Shown here in pieces: positions 5,754 to 14,422 of a DNA stretch of 14,422 bases; the stretch's first letter is position 1, and each line of letters starts with the position of its first letter. Location: IMG/VR virus record IMGVR_UViG_2681813315_000020; one strand, written 5' to 3'. The notes under the pieces were generated by a model that was given only the letters and a program-made list of their open reading frames with translations, was not told the DNA's origin and did no database searches. Both the position numbers and the translations under genes were made by a program. Origin of the DNA: a virus. Its lineage: Duplodnaviria > Heunggongvirae > Uroviricota > Caudoviricetes.

Positions 5754-6899
5754 TTACTTGCCAGCCTGAATTTCCAGAATCTTGATGGCGTTCGAATCCA
5801 CCACACCACCGCCCAGATATTTCTGGGTATAGATGTTAATGAATCCAGGCTCGCTGAAATCCGGACGGGTACGCGTACCGGTTTTATGGTCAACGATGAA
5901 ATAACCGCGCTTAAAGTCACCGACTGCAATCACACCGTCTGGCATAAATTCCAGATATTCAACCGGAAGCCCCAGCAGAGAATCAGGATCACCAGCCTGT
6001 AAACGATCGCGCCAGATGTAATCACCAGTGGCATTTTTCAGTTTTTGTGCGGAGGCGGCTGTATTTGAGTTCATCACCCATACAGCTTTTTTGCGGTACT
6101 TATTGCGCAGCGTAAATTTCAGGTCAATCAGCATATCGGCGCTGAGACTGCCAGTCACTTTTTTCGTCTGGAGCGTACCGAAAGGACGGGTTTTGTCATT
6201 ATCCGTAGCGCGCGGGAAAGTCAGGAAACCTTTGGCTTTTTTCTCGCCATCACCGGAAACCAGATCCGTTTCTTCGGTATCAACGAAAGTGTCGCCAATT
6301 TCAGAAGATAACCAGCCCATAATATCGACTTCGGAAAAATCGATAATTTCCTGAGTGGTTTTCGGGTAAGCGTAGATCGGATACAGGCGGATACTGACTT
6401 CATTCAGTTTTGGGGTTGCCGTCTGGTTACGTGCCGCACCTTCTTCGCCGTGTCCCACGACCGCACCCCCGGCAGAAACCAGTTGCTTAAATTCATTACT
6501 GTGAATGGTTTTAACAGTACAGATTTTACGCATCACCGACTCATCAGAAAGCTGACGCATAATTTCTCTGTTCAGTTCCGGGATAACCGTATAACCACCA
6601 TCAGCCGGAACACTGCCGGACAGGTTGCGGGTTTCCCCGGTCAGAATGTAAGAGCGTAGCTCATTTTTGGTGATTTTATCTTCGACGGGAACACCAGGCT
6701 GGTTACGTTCTTCATCAGCCACAGACTCGAGGCGGGAAATTTCTGTGTCGAGGGAATCGGCTTTTGCACGCAGTTCATCAAACTGTTTGCCTTCGTCATC
6801 GGTTAGACTGCGGTTTTCACTGTCGGCTTTTTCCAGCAGGGATCGCATCTGGTTTTTCAGGGCGGTTTTTTGCTGGCGGAGTTCGATTAATTTCTTCAT
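5754..6899 (-). CDS. Major capsid protein, HK97 fold, with N-terminal coiled-coil (delta/scaffold-like) domain
   Basis: 381 aa. N-terminal about 100 aa predicted coiled coil (MKKLIELRQQKTALKNQMRSLLEKA...). Body has HK97-family capsid blocks (GHGEEGAARNQTATPKLNEVSIRL..., ...DLVSGDGEKKAKGFLTF...). Confidence 0.85.
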   Translation of the reverse strand: MKKLIELRQQKTALKNQMRSLLEKADSENRSLTDDEGKQFDELRAKADSLDTEISRLESVADEERNQPGVPVEDKITKNELRSYILTGETRNLSGSVPADGGYTVIPELNREIMRQLSDESVMRKICTVKTIHSNEFKQLVSAGGAVVGHGEEGAARNQTATPKLNEVSIRLYPIYAYPKTTQEIIDFSEVDIMGWLSSEIGDTFVDTEETDLVSGDGEKKAKGFLTFPRATDNDKTRPFGTLQTKKVTGSLSADMLIDLKFTLRNKYRKKAVWVMNSNTAASAQKLKNATGDYIWRDRLQAGDPDSLLGLPVEYLEFMPDGVIAVGDFKRGYFIVDHKTGTRTRPDFSEPGFINIYTQKYLGGGVVDSNAIKILEIQAGK

Positions 6900-8646: not shown

Positions 8647-8691
8647 AGGCTTTACCTCACAGCAATAAAATAAAATTTTTGCATTTTAACC

Positions 8692-8920
8692 CTTCACCTG
8701 TTCACCTTTTGAGATTTTCCCTTTTTATTCATAATGTTAAGGGGTGAACAGTTTCACAAAAACTATTCACCAACTGTTCACCACTGTTCACCCTTAAAGC
8801 TCAATAAATAATCAAAAAGGTGAACAGTGAATAGTTTGGTGAACAGTTCACAAATAACTGTTCACCCTATAATGTACTGATATAAAAGATATTTATAACA
8901 GGGTGAACAGTGGTGAACAG
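8692..8920. repeat. Iteron array (about 12 copies of GGTGAACAG / CTGTTCACC in both orientations) with adjacent AT-rich tract 8663-8690; candidate replication origin
   Basis: Read directly: cttcaccTGTTCACC, GGGTGAACAG, tattcaccaaCTGTTCACCaCTGTTCACCc, aGGTGAACAGtgaatag...GGTGAACAGttcac...CTGTTCACCc, GGGTGAACAGtGGTGAACAG. Lies immediately 3' of the primase/helicase gene, the usual place for satellite and plasmid origins. Confidence 0.75.
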
Positions 8921-8933
8921 TTATTCCATAAGT

Positions 8934-10748
8934 TTAATTTTTGCTGTCGTCATTTGTGACCGATGCACATGATGGCATCCAGTCTTCTGAATCCTCTGTC
9001 AGTGTCACATTTGAACGCAAACCGTGCTTCGTTTTCCGTTTTATATACTCCCTGCCATATTCCGCCATTGCCCCCGGCATATCTTTACCGAAGCGCGTCA
9101 GTGTTACAGGTTTACCGAATCCGTGTGCCCTCATATATGCCAGATAGGCGTGATAAAGATACCTGCGCGGACTGAACGGAATAATTTCGGCATTACCCAC
9201 TAACAGACCATCACACATTACCGACGACATGAGATAGCCACAGAAGTCCACCAGCGAATCGCCCTCGCGTTTTATCACCAGAGCTTCTTCTGATTTCTGC
9301 TGCTCATACAGCAGGCGTTTAGCTTCGTCCTGGTCAGAAAAACGAGTAAGCAGATGGCGAATCACAACCGCCAGCTCTCCTTCTATTTTTTCTGCCAGCA
9401 TGGGGTCGCGCTCGTTCTCCGGTACAACCTCCGAAAAATTGAATATCACCCGACGACGTGAGATCCCCCCGCTGCGGTCACTGAATGACATGGCGTTATT
9501 GTTCACCGCCAGCACGACCGCCTGAATGCGTGTTGAGTAGGGGGCTTTATGCTTCGGGTCGATTGCCACCTTGTCACCGCCTGTAATAGCCTTAATTCCT
9601 GCGCCATCACCAGCGTAGCGGGTCATATCCGGCATGATAATCAGCGAAAAGCCAACCACTAACGCGCGTTCCCTTGCATCTTCCAGCGCCTTCATGCTTG
9701 CCGATACTGTGTTGGCCTTACCCGCCAGCATGGTGCAAATCTCCGCCATCACGCTTTTACCACTTCCCCCTGGACCTGTTACCTCAATGAATAACTGCCA
9801 GTCGTACCGGTTCGCCAGCACCATGAATAATGCAGCCAGCACGCGATCCGTCTTGCGGTCATTCTCTGCCACCGAGCAGCGTAACCACTTCCAGAAATTC
9901 GGCGCATGTGTTGCCAGCGTTTCCCCCTCTGCTGGTGGGCTGAAAGGTAATTCACTGGCAATTAACAACCAGTCGTTTTTGTTATGCTCCCGAAAATTAC
10001 CTGTTCTGGTATCAAATACCCCGTTACTGAATCCAATCAGGTTACGGGCTGTATTCCCCATTACAGGCAAACTTAACTTCATGGTATCGACCGCCGATTT
10101 AATGGCGTTCTGCGAATAGCTGATCTCCGCATCAATGAAAATCTGCGCCATAGCACGCTGTAACTCTTTATCCTGAATCGGCTCCCATACAACGCCGTTG
10201 TAATGGTGAACAGTGTCAGAGTCGGCATGAATCGCCAGTTCACCGCCATAATGTGCCAGGAGAACTTCGCCGCGCTGGCTTGCTCCCATCTGGTTAAGCG
10301 CCAGTGGTGCGGCGCTGTCTTCTGTTTTTTTCTTAACAGGAAGCTGAATCACCAGACCATCAGAAAGATTCTGGCGCTCACGGGCCAGATATTCGCGCCA
10401 GTTCTGCACCTCCTGGCCGTGCATACCCTCAGGATAAAAATTTGCATCCTGTACGCCTGCCGCCGCCAGCTTCTGACCAATCGCCTTTATCATTACTGGC
10501 GCAAGATATCCGGCCCTGAATATGCGCACGGATTTTCTGCCTTCCGGCACAATTTGCAGCTTATCCAGTTCGGATAACTGCTGCTCCCCAAGCCACACAG
10601 GAGGCTCATTATCTCCGGCCATACGCGCGTCATGTTCCTGCCATTGTTTTGCGTGTGACCAGGCATCACTACCCGCAAAAATAATGACTTCTGTTTCTTT
10701 GTGTTTTATGCCGCGTGACTGCTGTTTTACGTTCGGTGCCAGTTTCAT
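8934..10748 (-). CDS. Replication initiator: primase/helicase-type protein with D5_N-like region and P-loop NTPase domain
   Basis: 604 aa; Walker A FIEVTGPGGSGKSVMAE; upstream region resembles the D5 N-terminal-like domain found with phage/plasmid primase C-terminal NTPases. Stop codon abuts the iteron array. Confidence 0.8.
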   Translation of the reverse strand: MKLAPNVKQQSRGIKHKETEVIIFAGSDAWSHAKQWQEHDARMAGDNEPPVWLGEQQLSELDKLQIVPEGRKSVRIFRAGYLAPVMIKAIGQKLAAAGVQDANFYPEGMHGQEVQNWREYLARERQNLSDGLVIQLPVKKKTEDSAAPLALNQMGASQRGEVLLAHYGGELAIHADSDTVHHYNGVVWEPIQDKELQRAMAQIFIDAEISYSQNAIKSAVDTMKLSLPVMGNTARNLIGFSNGVFDTRTGNFREHNKNDWLLIASELPFSPPAEGETLATHAPNFWKWLRCSVAENDRKTDRVLAALFMVLANRYDWQLFIEVTGPGGSGKSVMAEICTMLAGKANTVSASMKALEDARERALVVGFSLIIMPDMTRYAGDGAGIKAITGGDKVAIDPKHKAPYSTRIQAVVLAVNNNAMSFSDRSGGISRRRVIFNFSEVVPENERDPMLAEKIEGELAVVIRHLLTRFSDQDEAKRLLYEQQKSEEALVIKREGDSLVDFCGYLMSSVMCDGLLVGNAEIIPFSPRRYLYHAYLAYMRAHGFGKPVTLTRFGKDMPGAMAEYGREYIKRKTKHGLRSNVTLTEDSEDWMPSCASVTNDDSKN

Positions 10749-11032
10749 TTTTTACCCCCTGCGACCAGCATTTCACGAATTTTGCGGATATGACTTGCTG
10801 CACGTTTCTGATTTACGGCTTTACGATGGCCCACCAGCGTGAAATCACGCCGGAACTGATAAACAGGCATCACGCAGTCATATTCGTAGCCATCACGGCG
10901 GTAAGTGATGCGCCGTTCTGCCACGCCTTTTATCGTTACCGTGCCGCCATAGTTATCCCGGAAAATATCGCCGGGGCGGATTTCAGGCCGAGCGGGGCCG
11001 CTGGCAGTAAAGCCAGAAATTTTCTGTTTCAT
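10745..11032 (-). CDS. Hypothetical 95-aa protein, translationally coupled to the primase gene
   Basis: ORF whose stop overlaps the primase ATG (ATGA); 5 nt after the stop of the upstream gene. Confidence 0.5.
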   Translation of the reverse strand: MKQKISGFTASGPARPEIRPGDIFRDNYGGTVTIKGVAERRITYRRDGYEYDCVMPVYQFRRDFTLVGHRKAVNQKRAASHIRKIREMLVAGGKK

Positions 11033-11037
11033 GGTTT

Positions 11038-11265
11038 TTATTCCGCGTTTATTTTTTTATCGTGAATTTCGATCGCTTTATTTAATTCGACGATTACCGT
11101 ATCGAGTAATGAAATAAACGCACCAGCAAGATTAGACTCACGCTCATCTTCCGGCGCATCACTTAAACCATCAAGCCAGATAAGAAATATTTGCCTCAAA
11201 CATTCACTGTTAGTCAGTGCGTTTTCTGCATGGCTCATTGATTTAAGATAACGGTCATCATGCAT
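11038..11265 (-). CDS. Hypothetical about 75-aa protein
   Basis: ATG at 11265 preceded by GGGGG (MHDDRYLKSMSHAENALT...); overlaps the stop of the upstream gene (ATGATGA context). The track ORF extends to 11310 but that start lacks an SD. Confidence 0.4.
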   Translation of the reverse strand: MHDDRYLKSMSHAENALTNSECLRQIFLIWLDGLSDAPEDERESNLAGAFISLLDTVIVELNKAIEIHDKKINAE

Positions 11266-11494
11266 GGTGCACCCCCTGAATATCTGCGGTAAGAATTTTG
11301 CCTGCCTCATTCAGCGCCATATCAGCACTAAATTGCATAAGAGCCAGTGAGTGAGGAACGAAAGCCCCGGCATATTCTGTTTCGCTGGTGGCGTGCTTAT
11401 GCGCCTTGTCTGCGATAACAGAAATATCAATCAGCGCGTGCATCAGCGTTTTGATGGCTTCGGCGGCTGCGTCCGGTGTGGTTTTATTGTGCAT
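11258..11494 (-). CDS. Hypothetical 78-aa protein
   Basis: ATG at 11494 preceded by strong SD AGGGGGAAA; overlaps the 3' end of the upstream gene. Confidence 0.5.
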   Translation of the reverse strand: MHNKTTPDAAAEAIKTLMHALIDISVIADKAHKHATSETEYAGAFVPHSLALMQFSADMALNEAGKILTADIQGVHHA

Positions 11495-11774
11495 AGGTTT
11501 CCCCCTGGCGAATACGGGCAGCGAATACCATCACGCAGCCATCAGGAGATTGCTGACGCGCTTCCTGTTCGCTGGTGGCCTCAATGGTAATCACGCGCGG
11601 TTGTGCCGTGCTCAGGGCAATAAAACGCCAGATGTATTTATTCAGGTTGTACGAGTCCCGCCCTTGCGGGTGTCTGGTATAATTTCTCATAGCTGCCTCG
11701 ATACGCTTTCTATCGTTGGTGGTTAGACGCCCTGCATGTGTGCCACCACTGCGGGGCGTTGTTGTTTGGTGCAT
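11484..11774 (-). CDS. Hypothetical about 96-aa protein, first gene of the replication operon; weak, unverified resemblance to Icd-like small proteins
   Basis: First ATG is at 11774 (MHQTTTPRSGG...YIWRFIALSTAQPRVITIEATSEQEARQQ...VMVFAARI); the longer track ORF would need a TTG start at 11861 inside the divergent promoter. Family guess is from memory only. Confidence 0.35.
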   Translation of the reverse strand: MHQTTTPRSGGTHAGRLTTNDRKRIEAAMRNYTRHPQGRDSYNLNKYIWRFIALSTAQPRVITIEATSEQEARQQSPDGCVMVFAARIRQGETYAQ

Positions 11775-11859
11775 CGCACCATTCGGTTTTAACCTATCAA
11801 TAAGTGAATCGCACCTCAAGCCTTTCTCTGAAATTTTTTTGTGTATACTGAATCGCACC
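11771..11859. promoter_or_regulatory. Divergent promoter/operator region with three ATCGCACC direct repeats
   Basis: gcATCGCACC (11771-11780), gaATCGCACC (11806-11815), gaATCGCACC (11850-11859). A good -10-like TATACT at 11844-11849 lies just before the third copy, upstream of the plus-strand RHH gene (SD AGAGAGGA, ATG 11880). Confidence 0.4.
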
Positions 11860-11879
11860 AACTTAGAGAGGATTCAGTA

Positions 11880-12059
11880 ATGGCAACAGGTTCAACAAAT
11901 AATAAGTCGCAACAGTTAAATGCCAGATTCCCGCATGATGTTGTTGCAGACTTAGAAAAAAATTTAGATGAAGGTGAAAGCAAGGCGCAATTTATAGTTA
12001 CTGCCGTTAAAGGTGAGATCAAACGCCGCCAGCGCCGCAAGGCCAAAGAGCAGGAGTAA
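11880..12059 (+). CDS. Small ribbon-helix-helix (Arc/MetJ-like) DNA-binding protein, candidate regulator
   Basis: 59 aa from ATG 11880: MATGSTNNKSQQLNARFPHDVVADLEKNLDEGESKAQFIVTAVKGEIKRRQRRKAKEQE; pattern of a short beta-strand (LNARFP) followed by two helices and a basic tail resembles the Arc repressor (FNLRWPREVLDLVRKVAEENGRSVNSEIYQRV). Confidence 0.5.
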   Translation: MATGSTNNKSQQLNARFPHDVVADLEKNLDEGESKAQFIVTAVKGEIKRRQRRKAKEQE

Positions 12060-12101
12060 CCATCACCAGCGCCGTGGTGTAAGGTATTACGGCGCATTGC
12101 T

Positions 12102-12290
12102 ATGCAGGACAACACAATGACCGATAAAGAATTGACCAAAACATTATCACCGACACGGAAAAGACGACGCAGAAAGATAGAGCATGAATCAGAAAGATTC
12201 GCGCCATGTGCTTTTGCCCTTGAGCAATTCCTTAAAGAGTACAGGGAAAAGCGCTCATTGCAGGTATGGCAACGAACTGAACCAGACTGA
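12102..12290 (+). CDS. Hypothetical small basic protein (start may be ATG 12117)
   Basis: ORF MQDNTMTDKELTKTLSPTRKRRRRKIEHESERF...; AGGA lies 9 nt before the second ATG; followed by an intrinsic terminator at 12357-12388. Confidence 0.35.
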   Translation: MQDNTMTDKELTKTLSPTRKRRRRKIEHESERFAPCAFALEQFLKEYREKRSLQVWQRTEPD

Positions 12291-12356
12291 TTGCATTGCC
12301 CACCAGCCGCAAATGTGGCATTGTTGGTGATGCTTTTGTTTTCCCTTGTTCTCACT

Positions 12357-12388
12357 GGCGACCCTTTTGCGGTCGCCTTTGTTTTGCC
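12357..12388 (+). terminator. Rho-independent terminator
   Basis: GGCGACC-cttttgc-GGTCGCC followed by TTTGTTTTG. Confidence 0.7.
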
Positions 12389-12481
12389 TGTTATCCGGCA
12401 ATTGTGGCGCTTCGCCACACGGTTGATATAATTCCCCTGCACTGATCCATTTTTTTCGCAGCAGGTTAATTGTTCAGAAAG

Positions 12482-12510
12482 GCGGTTCCTTATCGGGGCC
12501 GCTTTTTTTA
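12482..12510 (+). terminator. Second candidate rho-independent terminator
   Basis: GCGGTTCC-ttatc-GGGGCCGC (two G-U wobbles) followed by TTTTTTTA. Confidence 0.45.
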
Positions 12511-12622
12511 TGCCTGAAAATACCCGATAACATGGCTTTTTAGTTTCACCAGGACGAACGAAGCCCCGCCCCTGTTCGGGCGTATATCCAGTATTCATGG
12601 TTAGATCTCTGTGTTAGTGGAT

Positions 12623-12647
12623 GGCTGGCGGCGGTGCGCCGCCAGCC
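12623..12647. other. Perfect GC-rich hairpin 3 nt past the alpA stop (no U-tract)
   Basis: GGCTGGCGGCG-gtg-CGCCGCCAGCC, 11-bp stem. Confidence 0.5.
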
Positions 12648-12650
12648 TGA

Positions 12651-12854
12651 TTAGTGAACTGCCTCGCGGCTGTCCTTCCATGCCAGAACTTCGGATAAAG
12701 ACCAGCCAACGGAACGACCGCCGAGTTTACGCCGTGATGGGAATTGTCCAGTCTTCTCCAGGCGATACCGACATGAGCGGCTCAGGCCTGTAAGTTGCTG
12801 ACATTCTTTTTCACGTATAAAGCGATCAGCGCTTAACACTATTGCCTCCGTCAT
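12651..12854 (-). CDS. alpA: AlpA-family transcriptional regulator / excisionase-like winged-helix protein
   Basis: 67 aa (or 62 aa from GTG 12839, preceded by GGAGG): ...DRFIREKECQQLTGLSRSCRYRLEKTGQFPSRRKLGGRSVGWSLSEVLAWKDSR, matching the AlpA signature (R.....TGLSRSTIYRL...G.FP...KLG.R.V.W...EV..W). Downstream of and co-oriented with int as in CP4-57 (intA...alpA). Confidence 0.8.
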   Translation of the reverse strand: MTEAIVLSADRFIREKECQQLTGLSRSCRYRLEKTGQFPSRRKLGGRSVGWSLSEVLAWKDSREAVH

Positions 12855-13110
12855 TTCTCAAAGAGTCATTTGGTGTCTTATTGTGTCGTATTGTTCCCGC
12901 TAGAGTGATGAATGGCAAATATTGGTGACGGTCGTTTTACAGATATGGGGTAATTAGAATAAAAATACTTTTAATTCATTGTGATGTAGTAGCGTAAAAT
13001 TTTGCTTTTACGCCTTTTTTACATATTTTTAAGAGTGATTCGCCAGTGTATAAAAAAACAGTGTACATATAAAAATCAAATGGTTATGAATGAGTTTGAT
13101 TTTTAATCCG

Positions 13111-13173
13111 CTTGTCCCATTTTGTTCCTTGTTGTTCGTCGTTGTGTCTCGTTGTTCCACGTTGTGTCCGTTC
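13111..13173. repeat. Six tandem 10-bp-phased GTTGT(T/G)(T/C)C repeats between the int stop and alpA
   Basis: Read directly: CTTGTCCCat TTTGTTCCtt GTTGTTCGtc GTTGTGTCtc GTTGTTCCac GTTGTGTCcg. Opposite orientation to arrays at 103-130 and 7092-7123; shares an exact 12-mer with 103-130. Confidence 0.65.
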
Positions 13174-13192
13174 TGAAAAATCACGAAAAAAA

Positions 13193-14422
13193 TTATATTT
13201 CTCTGGCTATTGGCAGTGTGGTTACGTTTTCGTGAGTACCCGCCAGTATCTCTAACCGCTCTGTCCACATGTCCAGCGCATTACGTTTCGCATCGAGATA
13301 ACGGGAGTGGTTATAGACTCGCTGCATCCCTGGCATCTGGTGAGCGGTGAGTTGTTCGACAATATGCGGATCCACGCCTAAATCGTTCAGCATCGTGGTA
13401 AACGTGCGCCGTATATCGTGTAGTGACCAGTGCGGATGGTTTAATTTTTTGTGCGTGAATCTGCCGTATTGCGACACGCTGGCTTCCTGTTTCAGTTCCC
13501 CGAGTAATAGTCCTGTGTGTCGGTTCTGCTCCACCAGCCGTGTGACGAACGGTAAAATGCTTTCCGGTATTGGCCTGAATATGGCGACCTTCGTTTTGCT
13601 GTGCTCCTTCGGTACTGTCCAGAGCATTTCCTTAAAATCCCACTCCCTGATCTCCGACAGCCTCAGTTCTCCGGTTCGGCAACCAAACACAATCAGGAGG
13701 CGGATTAGTGCGCTGTAGTAGGGCGGGAATATTTTTTTATCCAGCGCCTGTAATAATTCGCCCAGTTCTTTGTTACTAAGCACGCGTTCGCTTATGCCCG
13801 GCTTTTTGCCAACGTCCACCACGTTGAGATCATCCAGAACGTTACTGACTGCGTAGCGACGTTTACGGCAGAACTTAAGCGCCTGTTTACACGCCTGCAT
13901 CATGTGACCAGACGTTACGGGGGATTTTTTGCGTATCCGGTCAAAACAGGCCAGCCAGTGACGTAATTCGCATTTATCCAGTGGCATGTTACCGATGTGC
14001 TGTATGACGTGATTATTCAGGCGACTTTTCAGGCATACATAATCGACACGGTTTTCCTTTACGTGCGTTTCCAGCCAGTAACTGATCGCATCGCCAACCG
14101 TTACGGGTTTTAACGCTTCCTGCACAGTGTAGTTCAGTTCATGACGTGGGTTTTTCCCTTCTGCCAGCCATGCACGACACTTTGCGGCTTTTTCCCTGGC
14201 TGCTTTAAGGCTCAGATCGGGATAGTTTCCCAGCTTCAGGCGTTCCGGTGTGGTATCCCTTCCCGTTCCAGCCCTGTAGGTGAAGTACCAGGTCAATTTA
14301 CCTGATGTTAAATATTTCACGCTCAGATTACCGCCATCGCTATAGAACGTATTTTTCTCCGCTGGCTTACCATAAAGTTTTCTTAACAATGTATCGCTCA
14401 GTTTGTTAAGCGCTCTGCTCAC
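13193..14422 (-). CDS. int: Tyrosine integrase, P4/CP4-57 type, with N-terminal arm-binding (DUF4102-like) domain; 5' end at or just beyond the window edge
   Basis: 409 aa reaching the window edge, where the first codon is GTG. N-terminus LSDTLLRKLYGKPAEKNTFYSDGGNLSVKYLTSGKLTWYFTYR resembles the P4-type integrase N-terminal domain; C-terminal catalytic region has HDIRRT and VYNHSRY (tyrosine recombinase His-x-x-Arg and Tyr motifs). Confidence 0.9.
   Translation of the reverse strand: MSRALNKLSDTLLRKLYGKPAEKNTFYSDGGNLSVKYLTSGKLTWYFTYRAGTGRDTTPERLKLGNYPDLSLKAAREKAAKCRAWLAEGKNPRHELNYTVQEALKPVTVGDAISYWLETHVKENRVDYVCLKSRLNNHVIQHIGNMPLDKCELRHWLACFDRIRKKSPVTSGHMMQACKQALKFCRKRRYAVSNVLDDLNVVDVGKKPGISERVLSNKELGELLQALDKKIFPPYYSALIRLLIVFGCRTGELRLSEIREWDFKEMLWTVPKEHSKTKVAIFRPIPESILPFVTRLVEQNRHTGLLLGELKQEASVSQYGRFTHKKLNHPHWSLHDIRRTFTTMLNDLGVDPHIVEQLTAHQMPGMQRVYNHSRYLDAKRNALDMWTERLEILAGTHENVTTLPIAREI

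Follow-up and report, generated by a model that had tools for sequence, protein, structure and literature searches.

The window, as we call the whole stretch of DNA analysed here, is the 14,422-nucleotide viral record IMGVR_UViG_2681813315_000020 of the IMG/VR database, and the feature under study is the divergent region between its leftward replication operon and a rightward gene for a small protein of the YlcI/YnfO family, referred to below as the RHH protein after the ribbon-helix-helix (RHH) fold proposed for it. The gene map was drawn from the annotated best Escherichia coli match together with domain scans (Pfam, NCBIfam), and on this map the window is a capsid-forming phage-inducible chromosomal island (cf-PICI) of the EcCIEDL933 type, adjoining the ilv operon. 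Elements of this kind are defined by int, alpA and pri-rep with an adjacent ori, and by their own capsid, portal, protease, HNH and terminase genes; they carry no tail or lysis genes and measure about 15 kb (bioRxiv 2022.09.08.507074). In the window, Pfam matches were obtained for the integrase, AlpA and the D5/P4-type primase, and a probable iteron origin lies at 8690-8925, while the capsid, protease, portal, connector, HNH, TerS and TerL genes were assigned from the annotation of a 99.4% identical locus by the NCBI Prokaryotic Genome Annotation Pipeline (PGAP). When 5,426 complete E. coli genomes were searched with 1.5 kb around the switch region, 1,723 gave a match, the best one at 99.4% identity.

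Leftward from the switch region the order of genes is the Icd-like gene, three small open reading frames (ORFs), the DUF4222 gene and the primase gene, followed by the genes for SSB, a ProQ-like protein, capsid, protease, portal, connector, HNH, TerS and TerL. On the other side lie the RHH gene, a small basic ORF (orf62) and, converging on them, alpA and the integrase gene. A first-pass annotation, made from the letters of the window, had described a leftward replication operon, intergenic repeats and a rightward RHH gene in this order, and annotation and domain scans confirmed that layout.

Candidate operators and predicted divergent promoters

The direct repeats of the first-pass annotation are real: ATCGCACC occurs exactly three times in the 14.4-kb window, always on the + strand, at 11773, 11808 and 11852. 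Only 4 of 200 shuffles of the whole window reached three copies of it, and when the 189-nt intergenic region was shuffled 20,000 times with dinucleotides preserved, an 8-mer of any sequence did so in 29 trials. The full unit is 11 bp long, (G/C)TG(A/C)ATCGCAC, and ATCGCACC is the right part of a GTG-N5-CAC site with palindromic outer arms. The window held no further copy of the 11-bp site with at most one mismatch, and the two matches with 2 mismatches correspond to the chance expectation. The three sites are designated O1, O2 and O3 (Table 1).

Homologues of the RHH protein are found throughout Enterobacterales. For comparison, 41 loci were taken from one-genome-per-species contigs, giving 43 genome loci in all, which span more than 15 genera. 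A second, independent collection of 80 IMG/VR loci, of which 76 could be parsed, brought the combined set to 119 loci. The same upstream layout was present in all 41 loci, with a -10 hexamer at -36 from the RHH ATG and sites at -32 (sharing 2 nt with the hexamer), at -77 (then TCAA) and at -112 or about -100. The architecture recurs across the combined set with the offsets -32 and -77 unchanged. The last of these is the homologue of O1, and its orientation varies among loci. The site at -77 is O2; the near-invariant TCAA lies 1-2 nt away from it in 116 of 123 loci, and four IMG/VR loci lack TCAA. The site at -32 is O3, whose offset was constant in 43 of 43 genome loci.

This conservation points to two back-to-back promoters. 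The leftward one, P_L, would be a sigma-70 promoter of the operon from the Icd-like gene to the primase gene, with a -35 element TTGAGG (11819-11814), a 17-nt spacer, a -10 element TAGGTT (11796-11791) preceded by TG, and a predicted start near 11784. The pattern TTGAnn-N17/18-TAnnnT recurs without exception in 42 of 42 genome loci, EcCICFT073 and the 76 IMG/VR loci that could be parsed, although the inner hexamer bases vary. It accounts for the near-invariant TCAA beside O2. O2 takes up the first 10 nt of the P_L spacer plus the last base of the P_L -35 element, and in loci with short O1-O2 spacing O1 overlaps the P_L -10 element. The rightward promoter, P_R, has a weak -35 element and a T-rich spacer, and TATACT or a one-base variant of it (TATGCT, TATAAT, CATACT, TATATT, TATAGT) is found at -36 from the ATG in every locus. 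As the first-pass annotation had supposed, one repeat overlaps the -10/+1 region of the RHH gene, with TATACT and O3 sharing 2 nt. Position 1 of O3, being part of the -10 hexamer as well, is C rather than G in nearly all loci, and O3 is probably the weakest of the three sites. Judged by their positions on P_L and P_R, all three sites appear repressive.

Two other readings of the sequence around these promoters were rejected. A 9-nt inverted repeat, TACTGAATC/GATTCAGTA, around O3 and the Shine-Dalgarno (SD) sequence was considered as an mRNA hairpin; its first arm precedes the predicted start, the folding energy of 11856-11900 is -2 kcal/mol (z +0.9), and the repeat is not kept in other classes. 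On the minus strand, TGGCAC at 11744-11739 was considered as a sigma-54 element and dropped on spacing, by sequence inspection.

Table 1 Coordinates of the features in and around the switch region of the window
Feature	Position	Strand	Basis and remarks
D5/P4-type primase gene	8934-10748	-	Domain scans
Icd-like gene, first of the leftward operon	11484-11690	-	68 aa; NCBIfam NF033153, 70 bits; PGAP
Predicted cis-antisense RNA, about 80 nt	11678-11772 including promoter; RNA 11690-11772	+	Structure and conservation
O1, GTGCATCGCAC	11769-11779	+	Within a larger palindrome, TGGTGC-ATC-GCACCA; about +6 to +16 of putative P_L
P_L, putative sigma-70 promoter of the Icd-like-to-primase operon	11791-11819	-	Conservation
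O2, GTGAATCGCAC	11804-11814	+	In the P_L spacer; centre at about -47 of P_R
-10 hexamer TATACT of P_R (RHH gene)	11844-11849	+	Conservation; predicted start about 11856
O3, CTGAATCGCAC	11848-11858	+	Shares the last 2 nt of the P_R -10; covers the predicted +1 (about -8 to +3)
RHH gene, YlcI/YnfO family	11880-12059	+	59 aa; NCBIfam NF041551
Small basic ORF (orf62)	12117-12290	+	57 aa (PGAP start) or 62 aa (start at 12102)
Tandem intrinsic terminators	12357-12386 and 12478-12507	+	Predicted to stop RHH/orf62 transcription short of convergent alpA
alpA	12651-12854	-	Pfam Phage_AlpA; upstream of the switch, same direction as the leftward operon
Integrase gene	13193-14422	-	Pfam

The RHH protein and its covariation with the sites

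The RHH protein matched NCBIfam NF041551 with 63.3 bits against a cut-off of 30 (residues 9-50 covered), and an identical protein, WP_000190566.1, is named YlcI/YnfO family protein by PGAP. An SD sequence, GAGG, precedes its gene at 11868-11871, and dN/dS within a class is 0.03-0.15, indicating that the gene is real. A beta-strand is predicted at residues 10-18 (SQQLNARFP), and in the AlphaFold2 (AF2) monomer (pLDDT 68) residues 1-18 are extended and helices span 19-30 and 35-58. Across 76 unique sequences the strand carries the RHH signature, with positions 12, 14 and 16 polar (16 always Arg) and 13, 15 and 17 hydrophobic. Residues 12-15 and 17 are among the most variable, whereas N7, S10, R16, E33 and E46-Q51 are invariant. 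In an hhalign comparison with Arc, whose sequence was verified against PDB entries 1arq and 1par, Q12/N14/R16/P18 fell on Arc Q9/N11/R13/P15 (E 2.7e-4, probability 42%). In Arc, these positions on the two strands of the dimer together recognise a run of six consecutive base pairs (PMC12645479). A profile search of the PDB with the RHH protein returned brinker only (E 0.41), and the top Foldseek matches, in an E range of 4-10, were the RHH proteins ParB of pCXC100 (E 4, probability 0.08) and ParD. We propose that the YlcI/YnfO protein is an Arc-like RHH repressor.

The segment at residues 46-52 (12015-12035), E-I-K-R-R-Q-R, is invariant in the 76 unique sequences whatever the operator class, with an Arg/Lys-rich tail beyond it; it may contact the invariant DNA arms or offer a docking site for a conserved partner (anti-repressor, RNA). 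The idea that helper phages carry an RHH homologue was dropped after a tblastn search of the protein against 50,697 phage records gave no match.

The evidence that ties this protein to the sites comes from comparison. Throughout the loci the GTG/CAC arms are fixed, and the 5-bp core varies by group, in concert at all three sites of one locus (mean core identity within a locus, 4.6 of 5). The core co-varies with RHH residues 11-15 and 17 (Table 2), and the IMG/VR set reproduced every strand/core pairing of the genome loci. The 119 loci contained 75 unique protein/core combinations, with 18 beta-strand variants and 16 O2 cores. O2 cores agreed at 4.96 of 5 positions when the beta-strand was the same vs 1.71 of 5 otherwise, and none of 2,000 label permutations reached this difference. 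The RHH/operator pairs represent at least 12 specificities.

Table 2 Predicted beta-strand of the RHH protein and operator core found with it
Strand (residues 10-18)	Core	Remarks
SQQLNARFP	AATCG	Window class
SQMTTVRIP	AAATA	
SQQIVSRVP	(A/C)ATGC	
SQLFTVRVP	AAACA	
SLQ(L/V)SVRLP	AACAC	
SQKLQARAP	GA(C/A)TC	
SQKMQARVP	TGCTC	
SQALKARVP	TGGCC	
SQS(V/I)T..	TCTTA	
SQQKTAR(I/V)P	ACTTG	Added by the IMG/VR set
STQ(I/L)ASRVP	CTAAC/GTTAG	Mutual reverse complements; added by the IMG/VR set
SKRFDVRVP	TCGGA	Second copy in L008

Two adjacent satellites within 5 kb were found in three genomes, and all three carry two different specificity classes: AATCG and AACAC (L005, 1128-1322 and 6001-6186), AATCG and TCGGA (L008, 1437-1622 and 6001-6186), and TGCTC and TCTTA (L016, 796-981 and 6001-6186). 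Different classes in adjacent satellites fit heteroimmunity. In the SQQKTAR(I/V)P class, which comprises 9 of the IMG/VR loci (L044-L123), O1 and O2 both read GTGACTTGCAC, and O3, at -32 from the ATG, reads CTGAAC(G/A)CCAC.

Natural exchanges between related islands separate the RHH protein from the other candidates for reading the sites, since the core tracks the identity of the RHH protein only and not that of AlpA, the Icd-like protein, orf62, the primase or the integrase. The window and EcCICFT073 are 92% identical in the Icd-like protein, 98% in orf62, 94% in AlpA and 84% in the integrase; blastn between them found no DNA similarity across 11736-12009, a segment that contains the end of the antisense terminator described below, the operators, the promoters and RHH residues 1-43. 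The EcCICFT073 sites are GTGTGGCCCAC (twice) and CTGTCCCCCAC, with core TGGCC vs AATCG in the window. The cf-PICI of O157:H7, in turn, has an AlpA identical to that of CFT073 (WP_000953274.1) but the RHH protein and operators of the window, and loci with the primase closest to the window's (75-78%) have the core AAATA. These swaps, together with the absence of orf62 from all 41 genome-collection loci, therefore exclude the five other proteins named above as readers of the sites.

The alternatives were weighed against this background. It is improbable that the RHH protein binds the sites and mainly activates or shapes DNA there, for P_L firing, excision or as a packaging aid. The centre of O2, at about -47 of P_R, is compatible with activation, and some RHH proteins do both activate and repress, such as Mnt at its own promoter and AlgZ/AmrZ. 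Against this, the P_L spacer already has the optimal length of 17-18 nt, a protein sitting in the spacer, at +6 to +16 or on the -10 would be expected to block RNA polymerase, and O3 covers the -10/+1 of P_R.

A type II antitoxin whose toxin is the small basic ORF, with the repeats as the operator of an addiction module only, would also account for an RHH gene with a small ORF on its 3' side, as many antitoxins are RHH proteins autoregulated from promoter repeats. This has very little probability. The first-pass annotation had described the RHH gene and the small basic ORF as a two-gene unit, and such a unit is present in the window; it is not conserved, orf62 being absent from 41 of 41 genome-collection loci of other taxa, where no conserved partner lies 3' of the RHH gene. 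We found orf62 only in the window, its close E. coli relative H1, EcCICFT073 and the O157:H7 element, and it is annotated as 'hypothetical' in H1, CFT073 and O157. It matches phrog_21027, a family of unknown function, Pfam scans gave no match even at E 10, and no toxin family was matched; orf62 is most simply read as a lineage-specific passenger. Two of the three sites, moreover, lie on the divergent P_L and not on the RHH promoter.

Only a slight chance is left to the repeats being AlpA sites through which AlpA would activate the leftward operon. AlpA is a DNA-binding protein that is needed for induction and activates PICI genes and its own promoter (PMC6092414), and the sites stand in front of the operon whose eventual activation depends on AlpA. 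Yet the identical AlpA (WP_000953274.1) goes with two unrelated cores, TGGCC in EcCICFT073 and AATCG in the O157:H7 cf-PICI, and loci with the window's core have an AlpA that is only 34-51% identical, or none within 6 kb. The sites also occupy positions that occlude RNA polymerase (spacer, +6 to +16, -10/+1), which speaks against activation.

The probability is smaller again that the repeats are iterons of the P4-type primase-helicase, forming an origin or cis replication region. Octamer iterons with the ending CACC (TGTTCACC) are the binding sites of the P4 alpha protein, and ATCGCACC, at the head of the replication operon, is superficially like the P4 octamer. The real iteron field lies elsewhere (8690-8925), though, and the operator core does not track primase type; in EcCICFT073, the rep gene cloned with its putative ori drives replication (PMC6092414). 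Finally, that the repeats arose by chance or as a functionless mutational by-product, given that short 8-mers recur by chance in AT-rich intergenic DNA, is practically refuted already by the shuffle frequency (29 of 20,000) and by positions and concerted core changes kept across 119 loci.

The autoregulated RHH repressor switch suggested in the first-pass annotation gains strong support from comparison, through the covariation of core and strand and through sites lying on conserved promoters. That account had lacked the leftward promoter, the palindromic site arms and the antisense RNA.

Predicted antisense RNA, probable replication origin and neighbouring features

A cis-antisense RNA is predicted opposite the 5' end of the Icd-like gene. 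Its -10 hexamer, TATAAT at 11678-11683 with TG at 11675-76, falls inside the Icd-like coding start, and the RNA would consist of a 5' structure (11690-11725), a GC-rich terminator hairpin (11726-11760) and a U-rich tail. It would be complementary to the Icd-like start codon, the SD sequence and most of the leader of about 94 nt. RNAalifold gave -28.5 kcal/mol for the + strand (11 of 23 pairs compensatory, many of them G-U) vs -3.8 for the - strand, and the minimum free energy of the window's own sequence was -35.5 (z -3.2) vs -23.7 (z -1.4). Of 76 unique regions, 74 have the + strand pattern TAnnnT, despite its location within the N-terminal coding sequence of two different Icd-like proteins. 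An Rfam search of 10500-14422 at E <=1 gave no match, and the RNAs of this stretch are therefore not relatives of C4, IsrK or CI.

The Icd-like protein, searched by tblastn against the 50,697 phage records, had a single match, in a 16.5-kb 'phage' record that is probably a cf-PICI. It had no match in P4 records, after which its identification with P4 Kil/Eta was dropped.

The iteron field at 8690-8925, directly downstream of the primase gene, has a GC content of 31-37% and contains (C)TGTTCACC/GGTGAACA(G), in both orientations, at least 8 times. We take its TGTTCACC repeats to be identical in octamer sequence to the type I iterons of P4, which the alpha protein binds. By these features 8690-8925 is the probable replication origin, which fits the EcCICFT073 clone of rep plus putative ori that replicated (PMC6092414).

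Several further features were noted between the RHH gene and alpA. A perfect extended -10, TGATATAAT (12424-12432, +), stands about 45 nt before the strong terminator at 12478-12507 (hairpin -19 kcal/mol), so that a second small RNA of about 70 nt, antisense to leftward readthrough from alpA, could arise between orf62 and alpA. The 15-nt motif GCYTTTGTTTTSCCT (12332, 12375, 12501) is common to three + strand terminator tails. Directly 3' of the alpA stop codon lies a perfect 11-bp inverted repeat, GGCTGGCGGCG-gtg-CGCCGCCAGCC (12623-12647), with a T-run on neither strand; it could be a processing, pause or protein-binding element between alpA and the switch. A 260-aa ORF at 11816-12598 (-), antisense to the RHH gene and orf62, was rejected as spurious, having no family match and no PGAP annotation. 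Outside this region, the major capsid gene of the closest E. coli relative (L001, 4462-8253; 99.4% over the 1.5-kb query) is interrupted by the IS21-family element ISSso4, and its probable counterpart in the window is an intact ORF of 381 aa at 5754-6899.

A proposed immunity-type switch and its relatives

We consider it likely, from the comparisons above, that the region forms a compact immunity-type switch made up of an RHH repressor, three operators and two back-to-back promoters; binding, repression, the order of site filling and the link to AlpA are what we infer from them. An RHH dimer would read the 11-bp GTG-N5-CAC site. On AAGTGAATCGCACCT, the two Arg16 residues would read G3 and the G opposite C9, the variable residues 12 and 14 would read the 5-bp core, and the invariant N-terminal arm would read the outer two positions of each site arm; the covariation of strand residues with the core lends indirect support to such sheet-in-groove binding by a dimer. 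Bound to O1 and O2, the repressor would shut P_L and with it the Icd-like gene, the small ORFs, the DUF4222 gene and the primase gene, thus replication and probably everything downstream. O3, with its weakened left arm CTG, would let the repressor limit itself only after O1 and O2 are filled. As a second layer, acting after transcription, the predicted constitutive antisense RNA of about 80 nt over the Icd-like ribosome site would mop up leaky P_L transcripts, and with at least 12 specificities co-resident satellites would not cross-repress one another. Helper induction would proceed via AlpA, as published, and AlpA-dependent transcription from the alpA side would bypass or override repression, possibly through leftward readthrough antisense to the repressor gene.

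The published data on AlpA set the place of such a switch. In EcCICFT073, AlpA is an activator, and deletion of alpA abolishes island transfer and diminishes induction (Fillol-Salom et al. 2018, PMC6092414). Overexpression of AlpA alone leads to excision and replication of this island, and helper phages raise alpA transcription (PMC6092414). The same requirement of alpA for induction was reported for EcCIEDL933 (bioRxiv 2022.09.08.507074), and both islands carry the RHH/operator module. The suggestion of the first-pass annotation that the region is the element's master control, derepressed by a helper phage, conflicts with these data. Since AlpA overrides the switch, the switch cannot be the sole master control. 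The best reading is that it would hold down the early replication promoter, for maintenance or immunity; its position would make it analogous to P4 P_LE immunity (downstream of vis) and to Stl of Staphylococcus aureus pathogenicity islands (SaPIs). The AlpA of Pseudomonas aeruginosa, an antiterminator with the element GGGACG, was rejected as a model: it is larger, with eight helices and DNA contacts at 128-142, and PICI AlpA, at only 62-67 aa, is therefore not the same kind of protein.

Several points weigh against a repressor switch of this kind. Pfam scans of the RHH protein, even at E <=10, returned no family and no RHH model, and a Foldseek search of the PDB with the AF2 monomer, itself of modest pLDDT (68), gave no significant match. 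The promoters and start sites derive from conservation, and a simple consensus promoter scan called neither P_L nor P_R at its threshold. In the SQQKTAR(I/V)P class the O3 core is unlike the O1 and O2 cores, and these elements may have lost autoregulation or may read O3 in another way. The operators lie about 30 bp from the RHH N-terminus, and the covariation could in part reflect linkage in one recombination block; linkage does not explain three separate sites changing together while arms and promoter hexamers stay fixed. Lastly, AlpA alone induces EcCICFT073, so the RHH protein, if a repressor, does not suffice to hold the element off once AlpA is made.

The type of mechanism, an RHH repressor with operators on divergent promoters, is already known, and one of the closest models is P22 immI (mnt and arc-ant, with the sar RNA). 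As proposed for the window protein, Arc and Mnt are small RHH repressors with a DNA-reading beta-strand, acting on divergent promoters that bear operators and subject to negative autoregulation, and the strand residues Q12/N14/R16/P18 of the window protein are in register with Arc Q9/N11/R13/P15. In P22 the small antisense RNA sar covers the ribosome site of a gene under this control, and the RNA predicted for the window (11690-11772) would cover that of the Icd-like gene; in function it also resembles P1 c4, which acts on icd. P22 differs in having two repressors with a 21-bp Arc operator and a 17-bp Mnt operator, whereas the window has one putative repressor and three 11-bp sites. The similarity of the window protein to Arc is marginal (hhalign probability 42%, no Pfam Arc/RHH match), and its host is a satellite rather than a phage. 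Searches of the first four leftward ORFs (Pfam, NCBIfam) found no Ant, KilAC or Bro; only the Icd-like and DUF4222 families were recognised.

Lambda CI at OR, between PR and PRM, offers the parallel in logic. There, too, three related operators lie between back-to-back promoters, two on the 'lytic' promoter and the weakest on the repressor's own; specificity alleles define immunity groups, and the proposed site filling resembles OR1/OR2/OR3. The window shows three operators over two divergent promoters, one of them that of the repressor gene, with both promoters predicted. CI, in contrast, combines a helix-turn-helix (HTH) domain with an S24 cleavage domain, whereas the window has a 59-aa protein of proposed RHH fold and 11-bp sites with fixed arms. 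Pfam scans found no self-cleavage (LexA/S24-type) or other domain in it; without an S24 domain it therefore has no RecA-dependent self-cleavage route.

Among satellites, SaPIs have the repressor gene divergent from the replication/packaging operon at an equivalent place on the map (Stl/Rpr; PMC6092414). There is no homology, however, and the Stl proteins are large HTH repressors released by a helper-phage protein, while Gram-negative elements need AlpA. P4 immunity (P_LL-vis, P_LE, CI RNA, kil/eta ... alpha) and P1 immI (c4 RNA-icd-ant) share with the window the order of an AlpA/Vis-type gene upstream, an early promoter, a small gene of cell-division-inhibitor type and a P4-type primase with a TGTTCACC origin, and in all three an RNA (predicted in the window) acts on the leader of an icd/kil-type gene. 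P4 and P1 employ for this a processed RNA that acts in trans (Rfam C4), and a protein repressor is absent from P4; the window differs in its predicted cis-antisense RNA and in a putative protein repressor with operators. YlcI (DLP12) and YnfO (Qin) of E. coli K-12, after which NF041551 is named, belong to the same N-terminal family, and the YlcI strand, TRNIRFP, is also RHH-like. K-12 ylcI (L124, 4252-4446) lies beside cos/nohD of a lambdoid prophage with no GTG-N5-CAC triad upstream, and the YlcI/YnfO family has at least two genomic roles.

The repressor that silences Gram-negative PICIs has been stated to be not known (PMC6092414). Tommasini et al. (PMC10111431) described, between the zones for integration and for replication, a 'dynamic zone' that contains Bro-N proteins and immunity RNAs, and no RHH protein; our literature search found no paper connecting PICIs with an RHH or YlcI/YnfO protein. 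In CFT073 (NC_004431.1 1380242-1381052; L043 5243-6053), the RHH, orf57 and Icd-like genes carry the tags C_RS30120, C_RS30800 and C_RS30125 amid C_RS069xx neighbours. Such late tags suggest that the genes were added in re-annotation, which may be why the module went unstudied.

A wider reading, which we put forward tentatively and hold to be possible rather than likely, is that Gram-negative PICIs and cf-PICIs have their missing global repressor in the YlcI/YnfO RHH protein, a functional counterpart of Stl that is overridden in AlpA-mediated induction. Leftward transcription driven by AlpA could run antisense through the repressor gene and collapse P_R, or a helper-encoded or AlpA-dependent anti-repressor could recognise the invariant C-terminal EIKRRQR segment. 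The module is a concrete candidate to fill an acknowledged gap, and one present in both experimental prototypes, EcCICFT073 and EcCIEDL933: a 59-aa protein, three 11-bp sites and two promoters. PICIs move virulence, resistance and anti-phage genes between Enterobacterales. If the reading is true, the 12 or more swapped specificities would be satellite immunity groups that decide which islands can reside together and be induced together in one cell, and the series would explain how a genome holds several satellites without mutual silencing or induction. The matched series of proteins and operators would also amount to a natural recognition code for DNA reading by a beta-sheet, and could yield a kit of orthogonal small repressors.

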